DNA of 64,000 nt from a virus (Duplodnaviria > Caudoviricetes): positions 16,039 to 80,038 of IMG/VR virus record IMGVR_UViG_3300027419_000027; one strand, written 5' to 3'. A program made the translations under genes and the position numbers. The notes under the pieces were generated by a model that made no database searches, was not told the DNA's origin, and was given only the letters and a program-made list of their open reading frames with translations. The first letter of the stretch is position 1. Each line of letters begins with the position of its first letter. Below are positions 2,396-58,649 of the stretch, piece after piece.

Positions 2396-2408
2396 TACGT
2401 GATATAAT
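2396..2408 (+). promoter_or_regulatory. Consensus extended -10 promoter (TGaTATAAT)
   Basis: tacgTGaTATAAT, a perfect sigma70 extended -10. Confidence 0.65.
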
Positions 2409-2540
2409 CAAACTGCTGTACACGATTCGGAGATAGAACCCGATGCACGACAAAACGAGGGGGCCGGCTTCTTAGCCAGCCGCTGAAAGGCATAGACGGA
2501 GTAGCTACCGTCGAGATGCCCTATATCATCGCAGCCTGTA

Positions 2541-2576
2541 GGGGGCGCGGCGAAGAGCCACGCCCCCTTCTTTTTT
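2541..2576 (+). terminator. Rho-independent terminator immediately upstream of portal
   Basis: GGGGGCGCGGC-GAAGA-GCCACGCCCCC stem (10 of 11 bp) followed by TTCTTTTTT. Confidence 0.75.
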
Positions 2577-2585
2577 GGCATTGCG

Positions 2586-4376
2586 ATGTTCGATCTTTCC
2601 GATCCGGAAAAGCGGGCGAAACTCTTCAAGGCCATCAAATCGTCTCGTGACGCTCTCGAGCCTCATCGTCGCGTTCGGAAGCTGATGGTCGAGCACTATT
2701 GCGGATCGTGGTACAACACCACGACGCCGCAAGACGACGGGAAGATTCTGGTCAATCTGATGAACCAGACTGCCCGTATCTTCACGGTCGCTCTGGCCTC
2801 GAACAATCCGCAAGTCCTCGTCTCTACCCCGCAAATGGACAACCTGCCATTTGCACGCCGGTTCGAGGTAGGACTGAACAAGCTGATCTCCGACATGGCG
2901 CTGGACCAGACGTTCCGCGCCATTCTTCTGGATGCCTTTTTCTGCATTGGGTGCGGCGTCGTGATGATGCGCGACACCGATACCCGATTCCACGGGCTGC
3001 TGGAATCCGAGGAGGATGTGTGGCTGGATCCAGGCGAACCGTGGCTGAACCGTGTTTCGTTGGACGACCTGATTGTGGACATGCCTTCCAAGGAACGCAA
3101 CAAGATGCGGTTCTGCGGGCATCGCTATCGGGCAGACTACGAAAAGGTGATGGCCGAGCCTGGCTATTCCAAGGAGTTCAAGGACAAGCTCACACCGACC
3201 AGTCGGGAATCGTTTGATAGCACGGGCTCCACGCGAGACATCGGAACGGATCCGGCCGAAGACGACGACCTGAAGGAGATGGTCTGGCTGCAAGACGTAT
3301 GGATCGCAGAGAACAAGTCGATTGCCACTATGGCGTGCGACCAGGATGACTTGGAGCCGGCGATTGAACGCGAGTGGATAGGCTCTCAGGCTGGCCCCTA
3401 CAAGTTCCTCTCGTTGGGCGATGTGCCAGATCGCATCATTCCAGCCGCCCCGGCAATCAACCTGTTCGGAATGCACCTTCAGCAGAACCGGCTTCACGTT
3501 CGTATGGAAGCGGATTCTGACTCGCACCGGATCGTGAACGTCTATCCCCCAGGCATGGAAGACGACGCCGAAAATCTGCGCAAGGCTGTGCGGAACGGAT
3601 GGTATCGAGGCAAGAGCCCTGATTCGATCAAGCAATTCGAGACGGGTGGAGTCGATCAGCGGGACATGGCGCTGGCAACGTTCATTATGGACGAATACGA
3701 CCGTTTCGCTGGAAACCTCCAGGCGATGGGAGGACTTGGGGCACAGGCAGCAACGGCAACCCAGGAACAGATGATCTACGGCGAACTGTCGCGGAATGTT
3801 GCAGACATGCGAATGTCCATGGTTTCTTTCGCCTCTGACTGCATCCTGGATCTCGGACACCTGATGTGGGAAGACCAGACGCTCGAGATTCAGGCGTCGA
3901 TTCCTGTCGGCAACAACGGCAGGCAATTCGGATCGAATTGGACTCCAGACAACCGCGTCGGAGAATTCGATGACTACGAGTTTCGCGTCGAGCCGTACTC
4001 GATGGTCTTCAAGACTCCCGAGCAGAAGTTGCAGGAACTGTTCCAGGTCTTGCAACAGATCGCACCTCTCTGGCCGATGTTCCAGGCTTCCGGAGCTGCG
4101 CTCGATGCCGAGGCGATCGTAGACGAAATTGCCCGGCTCAAGAATAGGCCCGAGTTCAATCGGTTTATAACGTTCGCCAATCCCGCCGAGATGCTGGGCG
4201 GGGATCAGAACACGATCCGGCAATCGCCGGTGACTTCCCGAGAAACAGTGCGGCGCAATGTCGGAACGGGCGGAACGCCCCAAGCTAGATCAAATGTTCT
4301 GATCCAGTCATTGATGGGTGGTAAGCCACAAGTCAATGGCCAGCAACAGGCCATGATGGGGAGACGGCCAGCATGA
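2586..4376 (+). CDS. Portal protein
   Basis: 596 aa, follows terL, helical P22/T7-like portal character (ATATQEQMI segment, EFRVEPYSM). Confidence 0.8.
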   Translation: MFDLSDPEKRAKLFKAIKSSRDALEPHRRVRKLMVEHYCGSWYNTTTPQDDGKILVNLMNQTARIFTVALASNNPQVLVSTPQMDNLPFARRFEVGLNKLISDMALDQTFRAILLDAFFCIGCGVVMMRDTDTRFHGLLESEEDVWLDPGEPWLNRVSLDDLIVDMPSKERNKMRFCGHRYRADYEKVMAEPGYSKEFKDKLTPTSRESFDSTGSTRDIGTDPAEDDDLKEMVWLQDVWIAENKSIATMACDQDDLEPAIEREWIGSQAGPYKFLSLGDVPDRIIPAAPAINLFGMHLQQNRLHVRMEADSDSHRIVNVYPPGMEDDAENLRKAVRNGWYRGKSPDSIKQFETGGVDQRDMALATFIMDEYDRFAGNLQAMGGLGAQAATATQEQMIYGELSRNVADMRMSMVSFASDCILDLGHLMWEDQTLEIQASIPVGNNGRQFGSNWTPDNRVGEFDDYEFRVEPYSMVFKTPEQKLQELFQVLQQIAPLWPMFQASGAALDAEAIVDEIARLKNRPEFNRFITFANPAEMLGGDQNTIRQSPVTSRETVRRNVGTGGTPQARSNVLIQSLMGGKPQVNGQQQAMMGRRPA

Positions 4377-4398
4377 TGAAAAAAAATAGGAGGCAGGC

Positions 4399-4575
4399 AT
4401 GAGCGCTATCCGCAAAGCATACGTCCTGGCACGGCTGGCAGATGTAGATCGAACACTCGAATGGCGTGAGGTTGAAGCTGAAAGCCTTGAACAGGCAATC
4501 AAGCTCGTCGAACAACAGAACGACGTTGAGGTTGTTCTGGAATCAAGTTGGATTCCAGGAGGCGTGGTGACTTGA
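4399..4575 (+). CDS. Hypothetical 58-aa protein (not in ORF track)
   Basis: AGGAGG SD, MSAIRKAYVLARL...GGVVT*. Fills the gap after portal. Confidence 0.6.
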   Translation: MSAIRKAYVLARLADVDRTLEWREVEAESLEQAIKLVEQQNDVEVVLESSWIPGGVVT

Positions 4576-4943
4576 AAAAACACAGACTAAAGCTGAATGG
4601 CAAGTGGGTGACGCCATCGGAATTCCATCGAAGTGGGCCGGTCGGAGGCGTTGGCATTCCGGCCATCCCCGCAACCTGTTCCTCTGCGAAGCCGCGGGTG
4701 TCAGAGTCAATGGGTGTGCTTCCACATCAAGTCCCCGTGGAGCGGGCGAAGCTTAGGGAGTTGCAACACAAAGGCGAGTTGACCGGCGTAAATATTCGCA
4801 ACGATGGTGCAGTCGAGTACACCTGCAATGGTGAACAGGGTGCGATCGGCTGGCAAAGGTATCGCGGAAACAAAGTCAACTTGGACGGAGGGTATTCAGA
4901 CACATACACTCCAGATGATCGGTTTGGCGCGAAACAAGAGTGA
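4572..4943 (+). CDS. Hypothetical head-region protein
   Basis: TTG start overlapping the previous stop (TTGA). In the operon between portal and scaffold. Confidence 0.6.
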   Translation: MKKHRLKLNGKWVTPSEFHRSGPVGGVGIPAIPATCSSAKPRVSESMGVLPHQVPVERAKLRELQHKGELTGVNIRNDGAVEYTCNGEQGAIGWQRYRGNKVNLDGGYSDTYTPDDRFGAKQE

Positions 4944-4957
4944 CAGGAGAACGATTC

Positions 4958-5974
4958 ATGGCAACGGTAGAACTGAGCGAACTCAACAGCAAAGAAGAGA
5001 TCGCTGCCTACGCCGATCAAGTGGTGAAGGAAGCGGAAGCGGATCGCGCTGGCGAACATGGGAAGAAGTCCGACGCACAGATCGTTTCCGAAACCGCCGG
5101 CAGACCCGCACAAGACAAAACACCTGTCGAGACAAATTCCGACAGCGACGATACCGCCCACGAGGGCGAGACTTCCGCTGAGGTCGAGGACCAAGGCGAA
5201 GATACCGGAACCGAGGAACTATCCTGGCTGGACGATTCCTTGAAAGCCGAGGCAACCGCGTTTGGCATCGGGGAATCGGATCTTGCCGAGTTCTCCAGCC
5301 GCGAGGAATTGGAACGGGCACTGAGGCTCTTCGACAAGAGCGCACTGGAAGCCGGCCGCAAGGCGTTGGCCGAAGGCGACAAAGGCCAGACTCGCAACGA
5401 GAAGGGCCAGTTTGCGAAGACGGATGAGCCCGAAATTACTGAACCGCCAGCAAAACGCGACGGTCAGTACGAGTTCAAGCTGAACACCGACGTGATATGG
5501 GACGAAGCGACTGCGAAAGACCTGACGACAGCAATATCAGGGCTTCGCGATCACTACGACTCTCGCTTGGCTGCGATCGAAGCACGGTTCGCTGAAGCGG
5601 ACGCCGTTGCCAAGGAACGGCACTTCGACACTCTGGTGGATTCTCTCGGGCACTCCGACCTTTTCGGTAAGACCGACAAGGAGACTACCCAGGAGAAGCA
5701 GCGCCGCGAAGACCTGTTCGTGGAGGTAGAAACCTACCTGCGTGGGCGAGAGATTCTCGGTCGTCCAGTTGAACTCAACGAGGCTGTGATCGATCGCGTT
5801 GCGAGATCGCTATTCGCGGCCGAAATCAGCAAGAAAGAACTGAAACAACGAACACGGAAGATTTCCAAGCAGAGCAACGGCCGGCAAGGCGGCGGGGCGA
5901 CTCGACCGCAAGACCCGAGGGAAGACCCGAGGGACGAATTCGACCGACTCTACCGGGAACTCGACCGGAACTGA
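4958..5974 (+). CDS. Capsid scaffolding protein
   Basis: Acidic, helical, contains an 'RNEKGQF' motif and a basic C-terminus. Directly precedes the major capsid gene. Confidence 0.75.
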   Translation: MATVELSELNSKEEIAAYADQVVKEAEADRAGEHGKKSDAQIVSETAGRPAQDKTPVETNSDSDDTAHEGETSAEVEDQGEDTGTEELSWLDDSLKAEATAFGIGESDLAEFSSREELERALRLFDKSALEAGRKALAEGDKGQTRNEKGQFAKTDEPEITEPPAKRDGQYEFKLNTDVIWDEATAKDLTTAISGLRDHYDSRLAAIEARFAEADAVAKERHFDTLVDSLGHSDLFGKTDKETTQEKQRREDLFVEVETYLRGREILGRPVELNEAVIDRVARSLFAAEISKKELKQRTRKISKQSNGRQGGGATRPQDPREDPRDEFDRLYRELDRN

Positions 5975-5990
5975 ATAAAGGAGCGGCCCC

Positions 5991-7109
5991 ATGGCGCTTG
6001 GAATTGAACAGATTGATGATTTCGTTGCTGGGATTCACCAGAAGTTTGCTGGCGAAGAACGGCTGGCTGCGCAGGACATCTCCCTGCCATTGCAAGAGTA
6101 CAAGTACGCATCGCGTCTTTTCAGCGGAAACCTGAAAAAAGACACGATGAGTACGTCGCAGTGCAAGTGGAAGGTCAAGGTAAATACGAACGACAACTTC
6201 CAGGTTGTCGGTCTGTATCACCGGGATGCTTCGACTCGTGTGAACGTGTTGGACGAAGGCGAATTGAAGTGGGGCCTGACGACCAACAACTACCACTACG
6301 ACATCGACGAAGAAATCTTCCGCACCGGCGGCCGGCAGATTTACGACTACATCGAGTCGTTGGAAAACGACTTGCTCACGTCGTTCTACACCGGCATGGA
6401 AGACCTGATGTTCGGTCCTGGCCCGTCCAGCCCGACTCAGTCTCCTTTCCCGCCCGTTTCGCTGTTGTGGTGGATCACCGCGACCGACGACAGCACGACG
6501 GAGAACAACTCGGAAGAGGGCTTCGACGGGTACGAGCCTCTCGGCTGGGGATCCAATGGTGCGGGCGGGATTTCCTGCACGACTTATCCCCAGTGGCGAA
6601 ACCGGACGTTCCCGTACGCCAACGTGGATCGTGCCGATTTCGTCGAGAAGACCATCAATTCGATGGACCTCTGCCAGTTCATGCCTCCTGTTCAGCGTCC
6701 TGACATCGTTGACCAGAAGCGGCACGACTGGGAATTGCTGACCACCCATAGCGTCTTGGCCAAATCCCGCCAGTTGTTGCAGTTGGGCAACGACAACATC
6801 GGCGACGACATGGCGGCGCACAGCGGCACGGTCTACATCCGTGGCGTACCGCTGAACTGGGTTCCTGCCTGGACGAATTCTGCCAGCGTGAATGCTCGCA
6901 CGGACGGGATCATTCTGGGCGTGAACTGGGCGACGTTCAAGGCGTACTACGCCGAGGGGCGCAGGATGCGGAAGCGGAAGGCGTTCCAGCATCCCGACAT
7001 GTCGAATGTCCGTGTGCGTTGCATGGACGACTCTGTGCAGATCGTGTGCTTCAACCGTCGCGGGAACTTCCGCGGCTACAGCACTAGCACCGTGACGGAA
7101 ACCGCCTGA
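5991..7109 (+). CDS. Major capsid protein (HK97-fold likely)
   Basis: 372 aa, strong AAGGAG SD, follows the scaffold gene. Confidence 0.8.
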   Translation: MALGIEQIDDFVAGIHQKFAGEERLAAQDISLPLQEYKYASRLFSGNLKKDTMSTSQCKWKVKVNTNDNFQVVGLYHRDASTRVNVLDEGELKWGLTTNNYHYDIDEEIFRTGGRQIYDYIESLENDLLTSFYTGMEDLMFGPGPSSPTQSPFPPVSLLWWITATDDSTTENNSEEGFDGYEPLGWGSNGAGGISCTTYPQWRNRTFPYANVDRADFVEKTINSMDLCQFMPPVQRPDIVDQKRHDWELLTTHSVLAKSRQLLQLGNDNIGDDMAAHSGTVYIRGVPLNWVPAWTNSASVNARTDGIILGVNWATFKAYYAEGRRMRKRKAFQHPDMSNVRVRCMDDSVQIVCFNRRGNFRGYSTSTVTETA

Positions 7110-7120
7110 CATCCCGAGTC

Positions 7121-7150
7121 GTAGTTGCCCGTAGTTGCCCGTAGTTGCCC
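7121..7150 (+). repeat. Perfect 10-bp tandem repeat x3 (GTAGTTGCCC)
   Basis: Directly visible, intergenic after the capsid stop. Confidence 0.95.
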
Positions 7151-7187
7151 ATATTTACGAAACGCACAATCTCAAAGGAGATAGCAA

Positions 7188-8081
7188 ATGCTTACCATGT
7201 GGAGTGAACTCGATGGCGATAGGCTGTTTTCGCCAAAACTCTGGAAGGGCATGGCCCCGCCTTTGGGGTCTGGCATCTTTCAGACGCAGTCCGGAAATCC
7301 AGCCGTTGGCGTGTTTGACGATTTCGTCGGATTCGGCGGCACGTTGAGCACAAACACTGGTTCGTACTACAGCGGGGCGAATCGGTACATCAGCTACCAA
7401 ACGGCCAGCACGTTGCTGACCAACGTGGCCCTGACGCCGACGCCCGCGAGTGTCGCGCCGACCAGCATCGGAGCGATCATTTTCCAGCCGACCTCTGGCG
7501 TTACTGACAACGACCAGATTTCGCTTCAATGGGGTGGCCACGAACTGACACCTTATGGGTGTTTCCCGTTCTCGGTCATTCCTGGCATGAGCAAGGATCT
7601 GGTCTTTGAGTGCCGATTCAAGGTCAGCGCCATCACGGACAGTCTTGGCGACCTGTTCATCGGCTTGGCGGGCGCCGCTGGCGTGGCCCCGGCGGCTTCG
7701 GCCGTCCCGATCACGCAAACGGCCGACACGATGGCGACGACTGTAAGCCATCTCGGTTTCCACAAGCTCTCTGGGGACGGCGACAAGATCGACCTGTCCT
7801 ACGAGCGAGCCAGTGGAACGGTTGCCACCAAGGCGGATGTCGGAACTCTCGTTGCCGACACCTACATCAAGGCCGGTTACCGCTACGACTCGCTCACGAA
7901 GACCTGCACCCCGTGGGTCGACGGGGAGGCTGTTACGGGTTCGCGAGTCAGCGCATCGACGACTGGTGCGACACCGTGGCCGAACGACTTCATGGCGCCT
8001 GTGTTGGCTTCCATGCAAGTGGACGGCACCACGGGGTTGACGATGACGGTCGACTGGTGCGCCTGCGCTCAGTACATCTGA
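7188..8081 (+). CDS. Putative capsid decoration/minor virion protein (beta-rich)
   Basis: T/S/G/A-rich, follows MCP, strong SD. Confidence 0.55.
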   Translation: MLTMWSELDGDRLFSPKLWKGMAPPLGSGIFQTQSGNPAVGVFDDFVGFGGTLSTNTGSYYSGANRYISYQTASTLLTNVALTPTPASVAPTSIGAIIFQPTSGVTDNDQISLQWGGHELTPYGCFPFSVIPGMSKDLVFECRFKVSAITDSLGDLFIGLAGAAGVAPAASAVPITQTADTMATTVSHLGFHKLSGDGDKIDLSYERASGTVATKADVGTLVADTYIKAGYRYDSLTKTCTPWVDGEAVTGSRVSASTTGATPWPNDFMAPVLASMQVDGTTGLTMTVDWCACAQYI

Positions 8082-25072: not shown

Positions 25073-26471
25073 ATTCAAATACCAGCCGGCGGGTGCGATT
25101 GTTGGATTGGCTGCGTATGCGGCTGGGCAAAGCAAGGCGAGGGAGCGGGCCTTGTCTGGGGCCTTGTCTGGACGGCGATACCCTCGCACTTCACAGGCAG
25201 ACACGGAAGAAATCGGCGGCCGGTGGGTCGATCCGCTGGACCAATTCGAGGGTCCGGACGAGGCGTTGCAGCAGGCGAGGATTCAGCAGCGGGCCCAGAT
25301 GAAGGCTGTTGGCAGAGATCCTGGTCGGGCACAGCGATACGGTTCGAACAATCTGCTTCCTAGGTGGCAATCCGGCGCCCAGGTCAAACAGATACAGGAA
25401 GCTCAGAAGGAGGCGACCGAACAAGCGACCAAACAAGCGGGCGAAGTCCGGACGGATACTCGCGCGTGGCGCCGGGCGCAACTGTCGTCGATGTTCAGCG
25501 ACTTGCCAAAGATTCCAGAGCATACGGAAGGGGATGACCGACGCCGTCTGGAAGGTCTGCTGAGAGACATCAACAAGGCGCGATACTCCCGAGATCTCGA
25601 TCCGACAGACGACGACAAATTCGATCAAGTTGCTGCGTTGGTTAAGGAATATAATGAAGCGGTAGGTGCAGTTCCGCCGGCCAATCCGAATCAATACGGG
25701 TATGTGCTCAACCCAGAAACGAAGAAGCTGGAACCTGCTGGCGAGCAAATGGCGGAATATGAATGGAAACCTGGAATGACATCACCTGTGGAGACAGAGT
25801 GGTTCAGGAATAAGAGGGCGGAAGATGCGGCAAAGGCGGAACTGGACAGGACAAGGGCAGACGCGGCAGAAAAGGAACGAAAGGCCGCTGATGCGGCGGC
25901 ATTCAAAGAACGGAAGGATGTCATAAAAGGATACTATGACAAGTTAGTCCCAACCATAGGATCAAAGTCGACTGGTATAGGGCCTAAGCCACCGGCAACC
26001 ACTGCGGAAGCGATGGCTACGGCGACCCTACAGGCCGAAGAATATTTCAAGGCCACGTCGGCGGCTCCTGGCACACCGCCTGGTACGCCAGGAGCCGCTC
26101 CTGGTGGAAGCCCCGCGGCCCCTTCCGGCCCGGTACAAATGGGCCCAGATGGCATAGCAAGCCCGGCGCCCGAACCAATTACCCTTCAGCCAGCCCCGCC
26201 ATCGAACACGTACCCACAAGACGACGCACGGAGACCAGCGGAACCGACGTCGAATCCCGCAAGCCCAGCCACAGCGGTGCCTGCTGGGTCAAATGGCCAA
26301 CCTGTAGATCGGATTGTGCCGACGACGGCGGCGCCACCGCAAATAGCGACAGATCCGGGAAGGCGGTCAGGTAATTCATCGGCAGTCGATCGCGCCATCG
26401 CCGCGGCGCGTGCAGGCGACCAAGCCGCAAGGCGCTCTCTTGAAAGCAGGGGAATTCCATGGCAACAGTAG
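25062..26471 (+). CDS. Internal virion (ejection) protein, Q/A/P-rich
   Basis: Low-complexity helical and Pro-rich. Precedes the giant gene. Confidence 0.6.
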   Translation: MPIKFKYQPAGAIVGLAAYAAGQSKARERALSGALSGRRYPRTSQADTEEIGGRWVDPLDQFEGPDEALQQARIQQRAQMKAVGRDPGRAQRYGSNNLLPRWQSGAQVKQIQEAQKEATEQATKQAGEVRTDTRAWRRAQLSSMFSDLPKIPEHTEGDDRRRLEGLLRDINKARYSRDLDPTDDDKFDQVAALVKEYNEAVGAVPPANPNQYGYVLNPETKKLEPAGEQMAEYEWKPGMTSPVETEWFRNKRAEDAAKAELDRTRADAAEKERKAADAAAFKERKDVIKGYYDKLVPTIGSKSTGIGPKPPATTAEAMATATLQAEEYFKATSAAPGTPPGTPGAAPGGSPAAPSGPVQMGPDGIASPAPEPITLQPAPPSNTYPQDDARRPAEPTSNPASPATAVPAGSNGQPVDRIVPTTAAPPQIATDPGRRSGNSSAVDRAIAAARAGDQAARRSLESRGIPWQQ

Positions 26472-29400
26472 ACTGGGAATCGGAACTGACTGCCGAAGTT
26501 GGTCCACCTCTACAAGGCGGCCAATCGACAGCGATTGACTGGGAAGCGGAATTGGCCGCTGAACTCGGACCACCGCCCGTTCTCCGGGCTGAACCACAAC
26601 CGCAACAGCAACCCACTCCGCAGCAACCGGCTCCCGAACAGCCAGTGGCCAAAGTCGAGCAGGCATCGCTTGGTTCGTCCGCCATGTCGCCCCGAGAAGA
26701 ACCCCAGAAGCCGCCGCAAGTATTCGACTTTGAGGGAACCACTTACTCGGCACCGTCCGACTGGTCGCCTGAAACGATTTCCAGGTGGCTCAACAAATAC
26801 GCGATACCCGACACTCGCCGCAATCTGACCCGAGAACGTGCCGGAGGTCGATCCCAGTATTTCGATTCCGAACGCGAACAGAAACTCCGGACGTCAACGC
26901 CGGTTGGTCAGCAGGGGCTGAAGGAGTGGGCTGAGTACCTGTCGGGCGAGGACGCCGAGGGCAAGCCCATCGTCGTGAAGCCTGAAGATGTGACCCCACA
27001 GGCTATGGCCGAGGTCGTCAAGGCGTACAAGCAGCAAGCGGAAGAATCGGCCAAGGCGACAGACATTAACCCGGTGAAGATGCGAGAGCTTAACGAAGAC
27101 ATCGCGTCCCTGGAGCGGGATCTGGAGCGACGATGGCCAAACGAGACGACAGCCGAGAGCGTCAAGAGGCAAATCGTCGACAAGATGACCGACAAGGAGG
27201 TACTCGAAGGAGCGAAGAAGCGCGGCGCGAAGGAAAGAATCACGGCCGATGCCGCACGGCAGATGATCGTCGAGGAACGAGTCAAGGGCCGGACTCCGCA
27301 GCAGGTAGCTGCCGATGAGGCGATTCTGAATTCCAGGCCGGGATACGTCGCCAGGAAGAACCAGCCGAAGGAAGCGTTCTGGGCAGAGAACCTTTTGCGA
27401 GAATACCAGCAGAAATACGGAGACGAGATCCCTCGCGACAAGAAGCCTGCGTTCGACAACGCCAACAAAGCCTACGATGCGTGGCTGAAGAGCAGCCCCA
27501 ATGGCGCCGAGGAAGGATTCGACGACTGGAGACGGAGTGCAAAAAGTCGTTCGATACTGCACCCCGAGGAACAAAAGCAACTGGAGGAACAGAAGCGAGA
27601 TCCGCAAAATCGGCAACGCTACAACAACCTGTCGGAAGCGATGGTGGCTTACCACGCCTACAACACGGGCGACTTGGATGTCGTGCCCTATCTCTTGAAG
27701 CGGATCCCGTTTGCAGGAACGGCGGTCGAGGCTGCCGATCTTCTGTCGCTCCGCAATGCCGTCAAGAACATCGAAGCCAAAAAGGCGACCGATTCGGATT
27801 GGTTCACTCTTGCGGGGGCGATCGACGCTGCGGAAAAGAGCAAGGACAGAGGATTTGGCAGGAAAGTCTTCGATCTGGTATCGCAGCTTCCCGCGATGGG
27901 TGTTGAATTCACCATGACCGGCGGTGGATTCACGGCAGCGCGCGCCGGGGCCAGGAAGCTCGCCGCGCAAGTGCTTGGAAAGCAGCTTCTGCGTCGTGCG
28001 GTTCCCAGGATGGCCGTCAAGGCAGCCGGATTCGCGGCTGGCGTGGCTGGCCGAACAGCTCTCAATGCACCGCTGGTAGCGGCCAAGGTATCTGAGAAGT
28101 GGATGCCGGAATACGATCTGACGCGAGACGAGACTGGTCAGCTTACGGCTGCCATCACGGGTGACGATCCGTCCTTCCTGGAGGCCCTGGGAAAGGGATT
28201 TGGGGCAGCCTACATAGAGATGGGATCCGAGGAAGCCGGGCGCCTCATCGGGATCGGCGGCAAGGCCTTAGCACAAAGCGCGGTCGGTCAGGCGTTGGCA
28301 AAGATTCCGCTGGCCCAGCGTACCATGGCCTTGAAAGCCGCCGTGCTCAACCGTTTCCTTGCAAAGGGCGGCACTGCCGCAAAAGCCAGGGAGATCCTCG
28401 ACAAGGCCGGATGGAATGGCATGATCGGCGAGGTGTTCGAGGAACGTGTGGCGGACGTTGCTGGCGGTGTGACTGGTATCGAAAAGGACTATGGCACCAC
28501 AGGAAAATTGCTCGCCAATGATCCAGAGGGGTGGGAACAGTTGGGCGTCGAGGCGCTGTCGTTCTCGGCGATTCCCATTGGGCAGACCGTCTTGTCGGCC
28601 GCAGATGCTGCAATGGCGCCGAAGGATACCAGGGGGCCTGTCGCTACACGAGAACCGGTCAGTACGCCCAGGGCACAGACTGAATTGGAAAAGCTGCGTC
28701 AGATCGTGGCGAAAGGGTGGGTAACGGTTGAGGAGGCGAATGATGCCGGTCTGTCCGGTCAGAACCGAGGCTCGCGAAAGGCGGCAGTACAAGCACGCAT
28801 CCAACAACTCGAACAGGAGATTTCCGATGCCGAGAAAGTACCTAGCGATCAAGTCGTCCCTGAAGAAGCAGGGCAAGTCGGAGAACGAGTCCCAGCGGAT
28901 AGCCTCGGCGACATTCGTGGGCCAGGGCAAGAGCAAGTCGGAGCGCAGCCGGCGGGCGAAGTCGCTGAAACACAAGTAGAGCCCGAAACTCCGGACATCG
29001 CTGAATTGAAGCGAATGGATCCCAAGGAGATCGAACAGATGTGGCTGGCTACCTTCCCTGGCGGGGAGTTCATGCCAACCGACGTGGACGAACAGATTCA
29101 GCAGATCGCGAAGGCGTGGGGAGGCGAGAAACAGAAGACTACCCCGTCTGCTGCCGATTTGAACACCTTTGCCGATGAACTCGAACAGGAGAAACAAGAT
29201 GCCGAACTGGTGGCTGATCAACCTGGTGCGGTGGCTCCGGATGTGGGACCGCCCGCAGGACCAGTGGCCGATGGAACGGACAGTGCACTACCGATCGCAC
29301 CCGCCCCGAGCGTTTCGGAACCGGCGGATGTTGCAGCCCAACCCGAGGGACGGGAGGGAGTAGGGCAGGCAGGGAAGCATGAATTCTCGTCCACGCAAGT

Positions 29401-32400
29401 TAATCTTCCCAAAGCTATCGCAGACGAGATTGTGTCTGCCAGCCAACTGATCGACGAAGCTGATCTTGCGGAAGACGGCCGCGAAACAGAACCCCACATT
29501 ACGGTCAAGTACGGACTTCACACCGAAGACGTTGAAGCGGTTCGTAAACTCGTCCAGAATGAGCCCCCGATTACAGTCAAGCTCGGGAAGATATCCACGT
29601 TCGAGAATGACGATTACGATGTGGTCAAAGTGGATGTTGAAAGCGACGACTTACGCCGGATCAACAAGAAGATTGCCGACAACCTGGAAGTCACCGACAC
29701 GCAGCCCTCGTACAAACCACACGTCACTCTGGCGTATGTTAAGAAGGGAGAGGGCAAGAAATATGCTTCCGCCAAGGAACTCGGGCATGAAATCACTCTG
29801 GACGCACTGACGTTTTCCAGCAAGACAGGCGAGCGAGTCGACATTCCGCTTCTGGGAACGACACCATCCATCGCGGAGCCCCCACAAGCCCCACAAACGC
29901 CCATTCCGGCCGAGACGCCTCAAGACACCACCCCGCCCGCGGAAACGCAGCAGGAAGCGACCCAGGCGGTTTCCGTGGACTATTCCGGCATGACCGGCAA
30001 GGAATTGACAGCAGAGGCCAAGAAACGGGGGCTGAAGGGTTTCGGCGGGAAGAAAGTGGCTGCGATTCGGACGATGCTGGAAGAGGATGACCGGGCGGCA
30101 GTCAAGAAGCAAACCACCAGCGAGCCCGCAGAAGTGACCGGGGAAGTAGCCACAGAAACAAAACAGCCGTGGCAGGTGTCCAGCGAAGCGTACTCGTCCG
30201 CCACCATGCCGGAAAGGCGAATATCCGACGAACTCGGCAGGACTCTTCAGGAACTCGACGTCAAGAAGCGTTCATGGAGAAAGCCTGAAGAGTCCAATCA
30301 GATATACCCGACGTTGAGTGATCTTGGCATCGACAAGAAGGCGTTTCGTTCGCTCGTCAAGGAAGGGTACGCGGAAGATCGAGGCTTTGGGCCATCAACG
30401 ACACCAAAGGCTTGGTTTGAACTGCAAGTTCTTGCTGGCGAGAATCCGATCGTTGGCGTTAGCATTAAGAGCCATGAGCAGATTGTCGAAGAAGCACTTG
30501 CCGCCGGCAAGGAAGTTCCCGCCGAAGTCCTCGCCGAATATCCCGACCTGAAGCCCGTGGCAGAAACTACCAGCACTCCCGCAGAGCTCCCGAGCGAGCC
30601 TGTAGGGCCGTCCGTTGGCGTTCCCGAGGGGCTGGACCCTATATTCTACCGCAGGGGGTTGGAGGCCCGCTCAGCCGGTATCCGCAACCCGGAAGCGTCT
30701 GGAGTGAGACCCGGTACGATCCCTTGGAAATCGTGGATGGCAGGGAACGAGGCAGGCGAGAAGCCCCCCAAGAGGAAAAGCCGCGTCAAATCGGAGGAGC
30801 CCCCGAGCGAGCCAGAGGTTGTGACGGAAAAAACAGGTTTCGACGCTGCCATTCCAGAAGCAACCGAGGCGCTGAAGTCTGCAGACATGTCCACCCGCGA
30901 TGGCGAGCTCGCGGCCATGCGTGAGGTCAAGGCTATTGCCGAGAAACATGGCGTGGGGGCCAACGAGCTTTGGCGTGACGTAGCGTGGGATGCGGTTGGC
31001 GGAATGGACATCGAGACGGAAACAGGAACCGAGCGGAAGGGCGAGCGAACCAAACCATCAACGCCGAGTGGTCCTGGCCCTGGCAAAATGGAAGCCGAAT
31101 CAGATATTCGTGAAGCCTACGAAAGCGGAAACATTGACGTAAGCGAAGCGAGGCGGATGCTCGCAGAGCTTCGGGCAAAACCTTCCGAGCCCGAAACGAA
31201 GCCCGCGAAGGGGTTCAGGAAGTCAAAGACTCCGAAGGCCGCCCGCGGGGCCGCTTCCTCCCTGTCCCAAGCCTCCAAAGCAGCGGACAAGGAAGTTTCC
31301 GAAGCGCTCGACAAGTTTGGAAAGACTCTCCGCAGCAAGGGAGCAGGATCCAACCTGTTCCTTGATGCCGAGATTCTCGCTGCTGCCGCGAACCTGACCG
31401 TTAAGTTGGTCAAGGCCGGGGTGCTTCGGTTCGCTGTGGCGATGGAACGTATGACCGCCCGTTTCGGCGAAGCGGCCGAGCAGTACCGGCCTGCCATGGA
31501 ACGAGCATGGGACGACACCCGGGCCGCCAATCCGGACTGGGGCATGGAAGCTCGCGAACCGGAAACCGCCGAGCCAGAAGAACCCACCTCGCCGCCTGCC
31601 CCGCCCGCGGCCGTCCCTTCGCAACCTCCGCAGCCAGCAGCGAAGAAACCGCCACCGTCTGGATTCATCGGAATCAAGAGAGCACGGCTAGAAATGCAGG
31701 CCGATGCCGCTGGATTGCCTCGTCCAACAGAAGTCGAATCCGTAAACGCCATTGAGCTTGTGGCGAATGCAGTAGCCAATTTGACGCCCAAATCTGATCA
31801 GGACATTCAAGCACTTGCAGCAGAAGTCATCACTTCCCAAAAATCAATTACGGTTGAACAGACAGCCGAATTGTTGGCTAGCGTAGATTACCACAGCCGA
31901 AAAGCGGACGAGGCAGACGACTTATACAACAAGCATATGGCTGCCGGTGAACTGGAGAAAGCAAGAATAGCGGAAGAGGAATCAGCCCTCCACAAAACCA
32001 CCGTGCGCAATCTGTCACAGGCGGCGAGAGATGTCGGACGGCGGCAGTTCGCATACATGGGGCATGTTCTGCAAATCCTAGTTGACAAGGATGGACAAGC
32101 CCACATTGAACGACTTCTGCGAAAAGCCAATGACGGACGGCTGGACGAAAGCGATATTGCCTGGGCCGAGAAGATGGCAAAACAACTGGAGAAGGCAAAG
32201 AAGGATCAAGCGAAACGCGGCAGGGAGCTTGACGAAGAAGAAGCACTGACTCAAGCAAAACAGAAGATCGCCGAACTGGAAGCGGAAATCAAACGGGAGC
32301 GGATGCGACCACGCACACGTGGTTCCAAAAACAAGATCGTTACCCAAGAGGCAAAGGACGCGGCGGTACAGCGAATCTTGGCTCGGCTGAAGAACGTGGG

Positions 32401-35400
32401 AACCACATCTTCTTCAACTCCAGCCGGGATAATAGTAGAAATGCTGGCGGATGCCGCGATTGTTGCCGGCTACCATGTCGAGGCTGGAGCACGGAAACTC
32501 GCAGACTTCTCCAAGGCAATGATTGCGGATCTTGGTGCTTGGGTCGAGCCGCACTTGGACGATCTGTATCGCAAAGCCAGAGCGGAGTATGCCAGCATCC
32601 GCCTAGCGGAACTTGGAGAGAAACTTGCAGAAACCGACGATCTGCGTGGACAGCATAGCTACGTTGAGAAAATGGCGAAGGAGATCCTGGCGGAAACTCG
32701 CAGGGAGGACGGCACATTCATTCATCGGGAAGAATTGCTGGACAGACTGCATGAAAAGATGAAAGCATTTGATCCAGACATCACTCGGCGCGAGACAATG
32801 GATATGTTTTCTGGGTATGGCAAACATCGCGAGTTGTCGCAGGAAGACCTGGAGGTGGCGTACCGAGATCGTCGGGGAGAGTCCAGAGAACTTGGTAAGA
32901 TCGACGACATGCGGCAAAAGATAGCACCCAGTTCCACTGGCACGGAGAGGCACACGCCATCTGACGAGGAACGGCAACTGCATAGAGATGTGAGAGAGTT
33001 GAAGAGACAAGGAGAGGCGGAAGGGTGGTATTACTCAGGGGATAAAGAGAGGAAACTCAAAGGCACACTTGAATCGCAGAAGACACGCCTACACAATGAG
33101 ATTCGCGATCTCGACAACCAAATTGCATCCGGCAAGAAGACGGTAAAGGACAAGACAGCGCCTCTCACCGATGCAGAACTGGAATATTTGCGTGAACAGC
33201 GAGATCAAAAGAGGGAACGGCTGGATGCCGTCATACGTGCTTCCGAAGAAGCCGACTTCGCGAGATGGGAAAGCGAAGGAGGAACTTTTGTCGATCCCGC
33301 AGTCGAGGAATACCTGAAGGTGTTGGATCGACAGATTAGATCGCTACAAAAACAGTTGGCGACGAAAAGTGTGTTTTCAAAACCTTCGCCGTGGCGACCT
33401 GGCGGACAGGCAGTAGATGTCAAGAGGGCACAGATCGAAGCATTGCAGGCCGAAAAGGCTTTGATGCGGAAAATCTTGGACCCCAATTACGAAACGAATC
33501 AAAAACTCTTGAATGCCGAGAAGGCGGCAGAACGAGAACTTGCAAAACTGGAAAAGGAACAGGCCGAAGGTTTCAAGATGCGAGAGAAACCACAGCCCAT
33601 AGTCTCTGATAAGCTCAAGGAAACGCGCGCTAAGTTGTCCGCGATACGTCAACAGAGAAGGGACTCGCTAGAAGGCGAGTATGCCCTGCGAGCCGCTATT
33701 GCCCAAAGCACACGCAATTCCGCGAAGATTTCCGAACGCCTAGCAAGCGGTGACTTTTCGCCAAGGAAGCGAAAGCCCAAAAGAACATGGGACGATCCAG
33801 AATTCAAGAAGGCAAAAGCCAATGAATTGGAGGCACGAAAGCAACTGGCCGAAAAAATAGCCGAATACGAGTGGGAACACATGACTGGCTGGGGAAGAAC
33901 CAAGTTCTATGCCGGGCGAGTCAGAGACGTATGGAAGGCGGTCATGACAGGATTCGACCAGACGGCACTTGGATTGCAGGGTGGCATCGTCACGTTTACT
34001 AATCCGGCGGTATGGTCGAAGGCGTTAGTTCCTACCGCCAAAGCGCTGATGAGTGAAGAAAACCGCGAGCTGTTGGATGCAGAGAGAGAGTCGCATCCGA
34101 ATTACGAGCGATTCAAAAACTATGGACTTGCTGTGCGAGAACACGGTGTCAGTAAAGACATGGCAGCTACGGAATTCTACGGCTCAGATGCGTTGATAGA
34201 CCGCATCTTTGGCGTAGCTATGAGCGAGCGTTCATTCTCCACGTTCATCAATGAGCTGAGATTCAACTTGATGCAGGTGCTGGAATGGTCGTACACCAAG
34301 GATGGGCGACAACTCACGCCAACTCAAGGCGAAGCTCTGGCCAGGATCGTAAATGCATTCACTCTCGCGTACAAACCAAAAAGCCACAAATTGCAGATAG
34401 CATTAGGTGTTGCGGGTGAGTTTTTTTGGGCTCCATCCATGTACGTTGCACGTCTGCAATTAGCGGTGGGGGCGCCTGTATTGTTTAATCCTGGGGCCGA
34501 TTCACGGGTACGCATGATAGCTGCGAAACAGTATCTCAAGGCGGCGGTAGGCATTGCAGTCACAACCGCCGTCCTGCGAATGCTGTTGGACGGTGACGAT
34601 GATGATGAACTGAATATGACAGACCCCGATTACTACAAGGTGAAACATGGAAATATCCGGATGGATCTGACATCGGGGCTAGGCCAGATGATGGTACTTG
34701 GTGCCAGAATCCTTAACTCTATCGTCGATGCCAGACTTGGCGAACCTCTGTGGGAAACCAAGGGCCGCCCGACGAGCACTAGAGAACTATTCGGATCTTT
34801 TGCCAGTTTCAAGACAGCTCCATGGGTGTCCGCAATCTTCGACTTCACCGAGGAAAAGGATGTAGTCGGTCGTCCGACATCGTTGGGAAACATATTACTG
34901 TCAAACATCACTCCCCTATCAGTTCAAACGCTTGTTGAGTCAGTTGAAGAGGCGGGAATGATCGAGGGGTTGGCATGGACGCTTCCTGGCGTTACGGGGC
35001 GCAACCTGTCGATATACGACCAAACCGCACCGAAGTCCGAAGAGACATTTCTAGCCACCACGCTGCGACTAGGCAGACGAATGATCGGCGCAGAGGCTCC
35101 TGGGCTTAAACCGGCCGAAATGGACAAGTGGCTTGAATCTAAGATCGAGTGGGACGCTGACCTGTCTGCGGTCGATAGATTTCTGACTCCTGAACAAGTT
35201 AAACAGGCAAAGTCTCGCCTCGAAAACAGGAAACAGGCTGTTGTGTTTAATGGTCTGAATCCGGAACCCAAGCGAACCCCAAAAGACACGGACGAGACCT
35301 ACCAGAAGAAACTGGACGCGCACTCGAATGCCCAGAATCGGCTTCGGGAAATGACCCAGACCCTCGGGCTGAGTCACGCCGAGGCTCAGCGGCTTCTGGT

Positions 35401-35608
35401 GGAGTCCTACCGCAAACCGAACGCAGAAGGCGTCATGCAGACGGAAGTGAATGCCAGGAACACCAGGGCCTTCGACAAGAGTTATCCGGAAAAGGGGATT
35501 GCCCTGGCGAAACTCTACGGGTTATCGGAAGAGGACTTCTGGAAATTCCGAGATAGCGCCGAATTCCAGGCGTGGGATACACGGTGGCAGGCGGAACAGG
35601 GCTGGTAA
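26459..35608 (+). CDS. Giant (3049 aa) polyvalent internal virion protein
   Basis: Uninterrupted ORF. Contains a 2H phosphoesterase (PHITV...PHVTL), a Rho-N/SAP-like motif, an 'HEQIVEEALAAGKEVPAEVLAEYPDL' polyvalent-protein-type motif, and a helical C-terminal ejection-protein-like region. Confidence 0.85.
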   Translation: MATVDWESELTAEVGPPLQGGQSTAIDWEAELAAELGPPPVLRAEPQPQQQPTPQQPAPEQPVAKVEQASLGSSAMSPREEPQKPPQVFDFEGTTYSAPSDWSPETISRWLNKYAIPDTRRNLTRERAGGRSQYFDSEREQKLRTSTPVGQQGLKEWAEYLSGEDAEGKPIVVKPEDVTPQAMAEVVKAYKQQAEESAKATDINPVKMRELNEDIASLERDLERRWPNETTAESVKRQIVDKMTDKEVLEGAKKRGAKERITADAARQMIVEERVKGRTPQQVAADEAILNSRPGYVARKNQPKEAFWAENLLREYQQKYGDEIPRDKKPAFDNANKAYDAWLKSSPNGAEEGFDDWRRSAKSRSILHPEEQKQLEEQKRDPQNRQRYNNLSEAMVAYHAYNTGDLDVVPYLLKRIPFAGTAVEAADLLSLRNAVKNIEAKKATDSDWFTLAGAIDAAEKSKDRGFGRKVFDLVSQLPAMGVEFTMTGGGFTAARAGARKLAAQVLGKQLLRRAVPRMAVKAAGFAAGVAGRTALNAPLVAAKVSEKWMPEYDLTRDETGQLTAAITGDDPSFLEALGKGFGAAYIEMGSEEAGRLIGIGGKALAQSAVGQALAKIPLAQRTMALKAAVLNRFLAKGGTAAKAREILDKAGWNGMIGEVFEERVADVAGGVTGIEKDYGTTGKLLANDPEGWEQLGVEALSFSAIPIGQTVLSAADAAMAPKDTRGPVATREPVSTPRAQTELEKLRQIVAKGWVTVEEANDAGLSGQNRGSRKAAVQARIQQLEQEISDAEKVPSDQVVPEEAGQVGERVPADSLGDIRGPGQEQVGAQPAGEVAETQVEPETPDIAELKRMDPKEIEQMWLATFPGGEFMPTDVDEQIQQIAKAWGGEKQKTTPSAADLNTFADELEQEKQDAELVADQPGAVAPDVGPPAGPVADGTDSALPIAPAPSVSEPADVAAQPEGREGVGQAGKHEFSSTQVNLPKAIADEIVSASQLIDEADLAEDGRETEPHITVKYGLHTEDVEAVRKLVQNEPPITVKLGKISTFENDDYDVVKVDVESDDLRRINKKIADNLEVTDTQPSYKPHVTLAYVKKGEGKKYASAKELGHEITLDALTFSSKTGERVDIPLLGTTPSIAEPPQAPQTPIPAETPQDTTPPAETQQEATQAVSVDYSGMTGKELTAEAKKRGLKGFGGKKVAAIRTMLEEDDRAAVKKQTTSEPAEVTGEVATETKQPWQVSSEAYSSATMPERRISDELGRTLQELDVKKRSWRKPEESNQIYPTLSDLGIDKKAFRSLVKEGYAEDRGFGPSTTPKAWFELQVLAGENPIVGVSIKSHEQIVEEALAAGKEVPAEVLAEYPDLKPVAETTSTPAELPSEPVGPSVGVPEGLDPIFYRRGLEARSAGIRNPEASGVRPGTIPWKSWMAGNEAGEKPPKRKSRVKSEEPPSEPEVVTEKTGFDAAIPEATEALKSADMSTRDGELAAMREVKAIAEKHGVGANELWRDVAWDAVGGMDIETETGTERKGERTKPSTPSGPGPGKMEAESDIREAYESGNIDVSEARRMLAELRAKPSEPETKPAKGFRKSKTPKAARGAASSLSQASKAADKEVSEALDKFGKTLRSKGAGSNLFLDAEILAAAANLTVKLVKAGVLRFAVAMERMTARFGEAAEQYRPAMERAWDDTRAANPDWGMEAREPETAEPEEPTSPPAPPAAVPSQPPQPAAKKPPPSGFIGIKRARLEMQADAAGLPRPTEVESVNAIELVANAVANLTPKSDQDIQALAAEVITSQKSITVEQTAELLASVDYHSRKADEADDLYNKHMAAGELEKARIAEEESALHKTTVRNLSQAARDVGRRQFAYMGHVLQILVDKDGQAHIERLLRKANDGRLDESDIAWAEKMAKQLEKAKKDQAKRGRELDEEEALTQAKQKIAELEAEIKRERMRPRTRGSKNKIVTQEAKDAAVQRILARLKNVGTTSSSTPAGIIVEMLADAAIVAGYHVEAGARKLADFSKAMIADLGAWVEPHLDDLYRKARAEYASIRLAELGEKLAETDDLRGQHSYVEKMAKEILAETRREDGTFIHREELLDRLHEKMKAFDPDITRRETMDMFSGYGKHRELSQEDLEVAYRDRRGESRELGKIDDMRQKIAPSSTGTERHTPSDEERQLHRDVRELKRQGEAEGWYYSGDKERKLKGTLESQKTRLHNEIRDLDNQIASGKKTVKDKTAPLTDAELEYLREQRDQKRERLDAVIRASEEADFARWESEGGTFVDPAVEEYLKVLDRQIRSLQKQLATKSVFSKPSPWRPGGQAVDVKRAQIEALQAEKALMRKILDPNYETNQKLLNAEKAAERELAKLEKEQAEGFKMREKPQPIVSDKLKETRAKLSAIRQQRRDSLEGEYALRAAIAQSTRNSAKISERLASGDFSPRKRKPKRTWDDPEFKKAKANELEARKQLAEKIAEYEWEHMTGWGRTKFYAGRVRDVWKAVMTGFDQTALGLQGGIVTFTNPAVWSKALVPTAKALMSEENRELLDAERESHPNYERFKNYGLAVREHGVSKDMAATEFYGSDALIDRIFGVAMSERSFSTFINELRFNLMQVLEWSYTKDGRQLTPTQGEALARIVNAFTLAYKPKSHKLQIALGVAGEFFWAPSMYVARLQLAVGAPVLFNPGADSRVRMIAAKQYLKAAVGIAVTTAVLRMLLDGDDDDELNMTDPDYYKVKHGNIRMDLTSGLGQMMVLGARILNSIVDARLGEPLWETKGRPTSTRELFGSFASFKTAPWVSAIFDFTEEKDVVGRPTSLGNILLSNITPLSVQTLVESVEEAGMIEGLAWTLPGVTGRNLSIYDQTAPKSEETFLATTLRLGRRMIGAEAPGLKPAEMDKWLESKIEWDADLSAVDRFLTPEQVKQAKSRLENRKQAVVFNGLNPEPKRTPKDTDETYQKKLDAHSNAQNRLREMTQTLGLSHAEAQRLLVESYRKPNAEGVMQTEVNARNTRAFDKSYPEKGIALAKLYGLSEEDFWKFRDSAEFQAWDTRWQAEQGW
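28827..28979 (+). CDS. Nested +1-frame 50-aa basic protein inside the giant gene
   Basis: AGGAG-N7-ATG. MPRKYLAIKSSLKKQGKSENESQRIASATFVGQGKSKSERSRRAKSLKHK*. Confidence 0.55.
   Translation: MPRKYLAIKSSLKKQGKSENESQRIASATFVGQGKSKSERSRRAKSLKHK
29199..29363 (+). CDS. Second nested +1-frame 54-aa Trp/Arg-rich protein inside the giant gene
   Basis: AGGAG-N7-ATG in the same upstream context. MPNWWLINLVRWLRMWDRPQ...GRE*. Confidence 0.45.
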   Translation: MPNWWLINLVRWLRMWDRPQDQWPMERTVHYRSHPPRAFRNRRMLQPNPRDGRE

Positions 35609-57891: not shown

Positions 57892-58419
57892 TCACCGAAT
57901 CATTTCCGCCTCGGCCCCTCGCAGTCGTCGCCGGAATTCCAGTCGCATGTCCACCAGTTCTTCCCGGGTGAACTGTCGCGAAGTGCGTTTCAGCTCCTCG
58001 AGTCGTTCGATTTCCTCTACGCCGCGAACCGATTCCATCCACAGCCGAAATGCCACCTGATTGCCAGACAGGTGCTTGTTGCAGTGCGAACACTGAGGGG
58101 CGACGTTGCATTCGTCCAGAACGATCGACGCTCGCCTCCCGGCGAGGAAATGCCCGGTCTCCATCTGTCCGTAGCCCTCGCCCCTCCAGGCTTTCACCGC
58201 TCCGCACGTCACACAAGCACACTGGCCAGTCGCGCGGAATACGAAACTCATTCGTCCGGCCACGACAGCAGGAAACATTCCCGCTGGCCTGGAAGCCGCC
58301 TCAGCGCGGATCATCTGCTGAAAGTCCTTCGCGACAAACCGATTGATGTAGGTGCCAATTTGGTATTGGCGGGCCGTCTCGATCATCCGGTCCCGCGGAG
58401 TTGTTTTCACTTTCGCCAT
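57892..58419 (-). CDS. NinG/Rap-like recombination endonuclease
   Basis: CVTCG, GHFL...NVAPQCSHCN..LSGN, G.EEIE.L. Confidence 0.85.
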   Translation of the reverse strand: MAKVKTTPRDRMIETARQYQIGTYINRFVAKDFQQMIRAEAASRPAGMFPAVVAGRMSFVFRATGQCACVTCGAVKAWRGEGYGQMETGHFLAGRRASIVLDECNVAPQCSHCNKHLSGNQVAFRLWMESVRGVEEIERLEELKRTSRQFTREELVDMRLEFRRRLRGAEAEMIR

Positions 58420-58649
58420 CACGCATCCTCCTTCATCCAGTAAAATTGCGTCCGTGCTTCCGGGACGAGTTTCTGGTCGACAACGGAATTCCAGATCGGA
58501 ACCGCCTTCTCGTCTCCCAGTTGTGCCGCCGCTTCTCGAACACGTCGGAGCGAGTCTGTTCCTCGTCGCCACACGGAGTGGTCGTCGGAATATGCGTAGG
58601 TCAGGTCGTGCTGTTCGCACATCGTGCGGAATTCTTCCTCAGTCATCAC
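58419..58649 (-). CDS. Hypothetical protein
   Basis: HDLTYAYSDD..VWRRG motif. Confidence 0.6.
   Translation of the reverse strand: MMTEEEFRTMCEQHDLTYAYSDDHSVWRRGTDSLRRVREAAAQLGDEKAVPIWNSVVDQKLVPEARTQFYWMKEDA

Follow-up and report, generated by a model that had tools for sequence, protein, structure and literature searches.

Does the linker ahead of the first cargo domain in a giant phage gene hide a second, far smaller gene that is read in another frame, or is the open frame found there a by-product of how the linker is built and exchanged? The locus that raises this question lies in an uncultured phage represented by an 80,038-nt IMG/VR virus record that CheckV rates as complete. The stretch analyzed here, which we call the window, comprises the last 64 kb of that record. 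The giant gene (positions 26459 to 35608, + strand, 3049 codons) is located after the virion genes and is annotated as encoding a polyvalent virion protein with a 2H/LigT/Acb1-like domain and a DarB-like region. Pfam places the 2H/LigT phosphoesterase at residues 983 to 1115 (PF13563, 4e-12; also PF02834), which corresponds to positions 29405 to 29803 on the + strand. The match to Acb1 is sub-threshold in Pfam, and PHROGs locates the DarB-like region at residues 1787 to 2250.

Phage-type polyvalent proteins are very large phage proteins that string together several unrelated effector domains and are encoded among late or virion genes, and 2H is listed among their domains (Iyer et al. 2017, PMC5512222). 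The product of the giant gene has 3049 residues, matches to both 2H and DarB-like sequences, and a cargo domain that is swapped among relatives. Because both a 2H/LigT domain and a DarB-like region were matched, we place it on sequence grounds among the phage-type polyvalent proteins, as that study uses the term.

A first-pass annotation of the window had proposed that the linker carries two small nested genes with the same initiation context. The second of these, ORF2 (positions 29199 to 29363, + strand), is read in the +1 frame relative to the giant gene, which we refer to as its host gene. It begins with an ATG at 29199, ends with a TAG at 29361 to 29363, encodes 54 amino acids, and occupies most of a stop-to-stop run that extends from 29163 to 29363. 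As had been noticed in that annotation, the ORF ends just before the 2H domain, with 42 nt separating it from the start of the Pfam match (residue 983, position 29405). The predicted peptide has a net charge of +6 and includes 5 Trp and 11 Arg residues. AlphaFold models it as a helix spanning residues 4 to 17 followed by a low-confidence tail (pLDDT 64), which is too weak a model for a fold search. Thus, the Trp-rich N-terminus claimed for this peptide is present and is modeled as a helix, but its amphipathic character is ordinary for the frame, since 16% of all +1-frame 15-mers of the giant gene are at least as amphipathic.

Several other properties of ORF2 are likewise typical of its surroundings. 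Its richness in Arg and Pro is the norm for the +1 frame of the giant gene (Arg 17% and Pro 9% overall). The length of ORF2 carries no weight because this gene contains ten +1-frame open runs of at least 64 codons, and the frame is open over ORF2 because the linker is poor in Leu, Ile and Met codons. In favor of a gene, the codon-usage score of ORF2 ranks within the best ~5-8% among 93 open stretches of the +1 frame. Searches for homologues of ORF2 returned none from Pfam or PHROGs, from a k-mer search of 5.8 billion proteins, from a profile HMM run against 1.84 billion protein representatives, or from elsewhere in its own genome. The ESM Atlas likewise gave no relative (best score 0.79, low recognition), and among GenBank phages there were no matches by blastn with the region or by tblastn with either ORF1 or ORF2.

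The 64-kb window contains exactly two instances of the pattern AACTCGAACAGGAGA-N5-GATGCCGA, located at 28806 to 28833 and at 29178 to 29205 (both + strand), and 100 shuffles gave none, even when two mismatches were allowed. The first site covers the start of ORF1, and the second includes AGGAG at 29187 to 29191, a 7-nt spacer and the ATG of ORF2. The start context reported earlier for the two nested ORFs is therefore real, but its coordinates were off, and the true starts of both sites lie one base to the left. The two ATGs (28827 and 29199) are indeed 372 nt apart and share one frame, +1 with respect to the host gene, as had been reported.

These two 28-nt sites have 23 bases in common, and no larger duplication was found around them; beyond the 28 nt they cannot be aligned, and their flanks are unrelated. 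In the host frame, both read LEQE-x-x-DA, and each of the six defined residues is encoded by the same codon at the two sites (P=0.004 given the codon usage of this gene). Only two of the seven Gln-Glu dipeptides in the giant gene are written CAGGAG, and these are exactly the two sites. The likeness therefore goes beyond a common LEQE..DA peptide motif and is present at the DNA level. The first-pass annotation had allowed that the context might be due only to a duplicated ELEQE..DAE motif, with the ATG lost in relatives. Instead, the ATG is retained in one relative (L011), and another (L055) has a GTG behind a preserved CAGGAGG.

The first nested ORF, ORF1 (28827 to 28979, + strand), serves as a comparator. 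Its 50-residue product is Lys-rich and basic, and the ORF is maintained in the +1 frame in relatives (frame test P<0.0005), with +1-frame conservation of 70% in L055, 51% in L033 and L034, 46% in L051 and 63% in L072. The differences between copies include silent changes, a switch between Ser codon families and a change of the stop codon from TAG to TAA. ORF1 is nested in five phages and stands alone in a sixth. In this last phage (L073, IMGVR_UViG_3300048503_000062), a free-standing homologue at 2501 to 2665 begins 20 nt past the stop of an ORF of at least 825 residues, an arrangement which suggests that the nested state of ORF1 arose by read-through or fusion. Judged from its pattern of conservation, ORF1 is a conserved gene. 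At 28731 to 28745, GAGGAGG stands ahead of an ATGATG that shares the +1 frame of ORF1 and lies 84-87 nt 5' of the conserved ATG. Initiation there would give an extended ORF1 product of 78 or 79 residues, but the relatives favor the downstream Met-Pro start over this one.

We also asked how strongly the start region of ORF2 resembles genuine start sites of this phage, which uses canonical SD sites. The + strand of the window contains 16 AGGAG-N4-9-ATG motifs. Ten of these coincide with real gene starts and one runs antisense to a gene; the remaining five arise from four AGGAG sites in the giant gene, clustered at 28731 to 29199. Outside the giant gene, then, 10 of 11 such + strand motifs are real gene starts, and within this 9.1-kb gene the four sites fall inside 470 nt, between the N-terminal region and the first cargo domain. 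Against codon-shuffled sequences, this clustering is only marginally in excess (P about 0.1 for the number of motifs).

For the start region of ORF2, structure prediction gives an unpaired probability of 0.58, which is in the top 6% of 142 internal ATGs, and the means for real starts and internal ATGs are 0.47 and 0.42, respectively. By this prediction the region is as unstructured as real starts. With AGGAG, a 7-nt spacer, an ATG and 54 codons, ORF2 has a start codon and a ribosome-binding site at a working distance, and the earlier impression of a functional-looking start region that nearly copies that of ORF1 holds up. A scan of 28300 to 29800 for promoters and terminators yielded nothing notable. 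Entry into the +1 frame by programmed frameshifting was also considered and set aside: no stop-adjacent or slippery site is evident, and the SD-ATG pair makes a frameshift needless.

Comparison with relatives revealed that ORF2 is part of a 215-nt portable "pre-cargo" linker module (29151 to 29365, + strand). The homology borders of this module are sharp on both sides and enclose the start region, ORF2 and its stop. Besides the window, the module was found in three other phages (L011, L055 and P0001). Three DNA copies of the ORF2 region could be compared (window, L011 and L055), since P0001 is a Logan protein in which the module is known in the host frame only. The module is about 88% identical to L011 in nucleotide sequence, with flanks that cannot be aligned. 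When the giant gene is compared with the L011 contig, no other long segment is as well conserved (84% for the module, 75% for the conserved upstream domain). L011 retains the SD, the ATG, the open frame and the TAG of ORF2.

L055 carries CAGGAGG, a 6-nt spacer and GTG in place of ATG, and its +1 frame is open through a diverged stretch. The first half of its module has diverged, such that the N-terminal helix of ORF2 is lost save for an L-x-R-W-L patch, and the start region is better preserved than the N-terminal half of the peptide. Its final ~60 nt are 100% identical to the window (29304 to 29365 in the window, 3122 to 3183 in L055), amid a surrounding identity of ~50-65%, and this identity ends exactly at the cargo junction. 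Such a pattern has the appearance of a very recent recombination at the linker/cargo border.

In all four phages the host frame closes the module with ...PEGREGV and then enters a different cargo domain, which is 2H in the window and an unrecognized, unrelated domain in each of the other three. A host-frame motif, D-L-x-x-F/L-x-D/E-E-L, precedes the ATG position and is maintained in four of four phages with host-synonymous changes. On the other side of the cargo, at 29960 to 30060, lies an SAP/HeH-like segment (host frame ...VDYSGMTGKEL...) that is 83% identical in L055 and has a normal host-frame substitution pattern; it may be a right-hand homology arm for cargo swapping.

Additional searches did not extend the known range of the module. 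Genome contigs and most viral-contig matches had the 2H domain only, without the linker. Metagenome contigs anchored on the upstream domain gave 12 loci, and the new, distant loci among them lacked both ORF1 and ORF2. Three degenerate DNA patterns (the module tail back-translated in the host frame and in the +1 frame, and the Val/Ala/Pro stretch back-translated in the host frame) recovered from IMG/VR only contigs that were already known, and protein-seeded viral scans in either frame found no further contigs with the module.

If ORF2 encodes a useful peptide, then substitutions between its copies should spare the +1 frame. We used two custom-written procedures, an OLGenie-style estimator and a simpler frame test in which the observed substitutions are relocated randomly, with the host frame kept open, and amino-acid changes are counted in each frame. 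The selection signal comes from a single informative pair, the window and L011, which differ by 25 substitutions. The frame test counted 16 amino-acid changes in the host frame (null 16.0, P=0.60), 11 in the +1 frame (null 16.9, P=0.004) and 18 in the +2 frame (P=0.90). The estimator gave dNN 0.10, dNS 0.42 and dSN 0.105 for the same pair, corresponding to dNN/dNS of 0.24 for the +1 frame (bootstrap 0.06-0.67) and dNN/dSN of 0.98 for the host frame. By simulation, the dNN/dNS value has P=0.006 at the observed kappa of 2.6 and 0.03 at kappa 8.

A stricter permutation that preserves the per-position counts gave P=0.029, or 0.011 when the outcome "no stop, ATG kept" was considered jointly. All 11 substitutions at +1-frame third positions are silent in the +1 frame, and in neutral simulations with the same 25 substitutions a stop arises in the +1 frame in about 75% of cases. 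By host codon position, the substitutions are distributed 11:8:6. Between these two phages, host-frame synonymous divergence is ~0.1 in the module and >1 in the adjacent conserved upstream domain. The low value in the module could reflect recent recombination instead of constraint, because the 60 nt identical to L055 show that exchange occurs here.

The frame test behaved as expected on its controls, but the second available comparison tempers the result. For ORF1, the +1-frame test gave P<0.0005 (window versus L055) and 0.006 (L034 versus L051), and for the linker between ORF1 and ORF2 the pattern was reversed (host frame P=0.002, +1 frame P=0.28). However, dNN/dNS below 1 was also seen in that control linker, and so this ratio alone is not specific. 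Over ORF2, the comparison of the window with L055 favored no frame (0.25 for both the host and the +1 frame), and the non-coding +2 frame reached P=0.03, which indicates that the frame test is noisy because this frame is meaningless. Local protein alignment of the diverged N-terminal half with L055 favored the +1 frame (z 4.0 against -0.1), a difference that rests on the one L-x-R-W-L patch and was not counted. Hence, the proposal of a gene within the linker finds backing in L011, where the frame is retained and substitutions spare it, but L055 adds no frame preference.

Taking these observations together, we regard ORF2 as a candidate for a young, lineage-restricted gene nested in an overlapping frame, and put its chances at about even. 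This reading explains the start region, the placement of the module borders, and why changes are silent in the +1 frame while the host frame drifts neutrally. Ribosomes would initiate internally on the giant late mRNA at AGGAG-N7-ATG (29187 to 29201) and read 54 codons in the +1 frame across a linker that, in the host frame, is disordered and composed of Ala, Pro, Gly, Val and acidic residues. Translation would end at the TAG (29361 to 29363), exactly where the conserved module stops and the cargo domain starts. The resulting peptide would be cationic (+6) and rich in Trp and Arg, with a single amphipathic helix at its N-terminus followed by an unstructured Arg/Pro tail. We infer that ORF2 is translated and that its peptide is functional; our guess is that it might be a membrane-surface or nucleic-acid-binding accessory made together with virion proteins, and it would act independently of ORF1 and of the 2H domain.

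A quite different origin for the same sequence has somewhat less than an even chance in our estimation, and the two readings stay close. ORF2 would be non-functional, and the 215-nt linker would spread by recombination as a homology arm for cargo swapping. Its SD-like CAGGAG would derive from the Gln-Glu of DELEQE, a motif at the end of a helix in the host frame, its ATG from Asp-Ala, and its open frame from the scarcity of linker codons that create +1 stops, leaving any peptide without a role. The occurrence of the module in four phages, each with a different cargo directly after ...PEGREGV, fits this well, as do the ~60 nt of complete identity with L055 at the junction and the maintenance of the upstream D-L-x-x-F/L-x-D/E-E-L motif by host-synonymous changes in every copy. 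The 11:8:6 distribution matches plain neutrality, ten +1 runs are similarly long, and the composition of ORF2 is typical of its frame; the lack of homologues in protein libraries and GenBank phages, the tiny range and the lack of frame preference against L055 point the same way. However, neutral drift leaves unexplained both the 11 silent +1 third-position changes and the absence of stops, and the deficit of amino-acid changes is confined to the +1 frame (P=0.004-0.03), opposite to the control linker. Moreover, CAGGAG is retained at synonymous positions in every Gln-Glu-bearing copy of both sites, where ~24% would be expected, and strong internal SD-ATG pairs are otherwise nearly confined to true starts in this phage.

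Two further proposals fare worse against the same data. Perhaps the act of translation matters rather than the peptide, with ribosome loading or pausing tuning the translation or folding of the cargo, or covering the long mRNA. The concentration of all four AGGAG-ATG motifs of the 9.1-kb gene within 470 nt (28731 to 29199) would suit such a role, as would a start region that outlasts the N-terminal half of the peptide in L055. We nonetheless consider this idea quite improbable, since it fails to explain the deficit of +1 amino-acid changes along the whole of ORF2 in L011, and the motif clustering is marginal against codon shuffling. Least probable of all, and by our estimate very unlikely, is the earlier suggestion that ORF1 and ORF2 form a functional pair, such as a toxin and chaperone, or inhibit the adjacent 2H enzyme. 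It was prompted by the same frame, the 372-nt distance and the near-identical start regions, but the two ORFs are distributed independently: L011 has ORF2 and a decayed ORF1 with an in-frame stop, L033, L034 and L051 have ORF1 without ORF2, and L073 has ORF1 alone as a free-standing gene. A tie to 2H is contradicted by the three of four phages in which the module precedes other, unrelated cargo, and there is no sign that either peptide serves as a toxin, a chaperone or an inhibitor. Although the remainder of ORF1 has decayed in L011, its final 35 nt (28943 to 28977) are 91% conserved there.

The embedded spanin genes Rz/Rz1 of phage lambda offer a well-known counterpart, in which a small gene equipped with an SD and ATG of its own lies wholly within a larger phage gene, on the same strand and in the +1 frame. 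Rz1, a lipoprotein that carries a signal sequence and a lipobox Cys, was proven genetically and works with the product of its host gene. ORF2 differs in that it is only a candidate, lacks the signal peptide and the lipobox cysteine of an Rz1-type o-spanin (it contains no Cys), and has nothing to tie it to the polyvalent protein. A closer parallel is ORF1, which has the same host gene, frame and near-identical 28-nt start, overlies linker sequence, and likewise combines a neutral host frame with a protected +1 frame. Even so, ORF1 is Lys-rich, is found in at least six phages and stands alone in L073, whereas ORF2 is Trp/Arg-rich, occurs in three or four phages and never stands alone, and the two peptides have no sequence similarity past Met-Pro.

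A third point of comparison is gp28 of phage phiKT, the "disruptin," a small cationic amphipathic lysis peptide encoded by a stand-alone gene in a lysis cassette (bioRxiv 10.1101/515445). The ORF2 product would likewise be a short phage peptide that bears a strong positive charge and contains an amphipathic helix, but ORF2 is nested, its amphipathicity is unremarkable for its frame, and no sequence similarity would be expected. That the ORF2 peptide works as gp28 does is only a guess by analogy. The literature searched covers embedded phage genes and polyvalent proteins, and nested genes in polyvalent linkers were not found there; the word "overlapping" is absent from Iyer et al. 2017 (PMC5512222).

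If the nested-gene reading is true, this giant anti-defence gene holds two tandem hidden genes with a common initiation cassette, never reported by gene finders. It would suggest that polyvalent genes are assembled and reshuffled by using small genes, read through in a different frame, as linkers, and the annotation of such phage genes would need to read linkers in all frames. A broader view, which we rate as unlikely, is that each "linker" of this polyvalent protein is the wrong-frame reading of a small portable gene, with ORF1 and ORF2 as two tandem instances that use the same initiation cassette. In this equally doubtful extension, each module would be a mobile nested gene whose host-frame read-out need only stay open and floppy, and its conserved DNA would additionally provide the homology arm through which cargo domains are exchanged. 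Should ORF2 prove not to be real, the locus offers a warning, namely that a recombining, neutrally drifting linker can produce a perfect SD-ATG pair, an open frame that is conserved and even a selection test that is nominally significant.

Other reading-frame features were encountered in the course of this work. A strong SD (AAGGAG, 9 nt) precedes a host-frame ATG at 29025 to 29041 (the Met of ...EIEQMW...), from which a 2189-residue isoform could be made that lacks the N-terminal part and starts shortly ahead of the cargo domains; this Met is Ile in L055 and so is not conserved there. In L011, the giant gene is split into ORFs at 1172 to 2590 and 2401 to 7311 that lie in different frames and overlap by ~190 nt, which could reflect a frameshift, an assembly error or a programmed event. 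Elsewhere in the window, on the - strand at 57892 to 58620, a 66-codon +1-frame stretch that starts near 58619 has a gene-like codon-usage score of 0.43, the highest of the 93 stretches, and the first part of the GTG-started ORF assumed at this site probably has the wrong frame or start.
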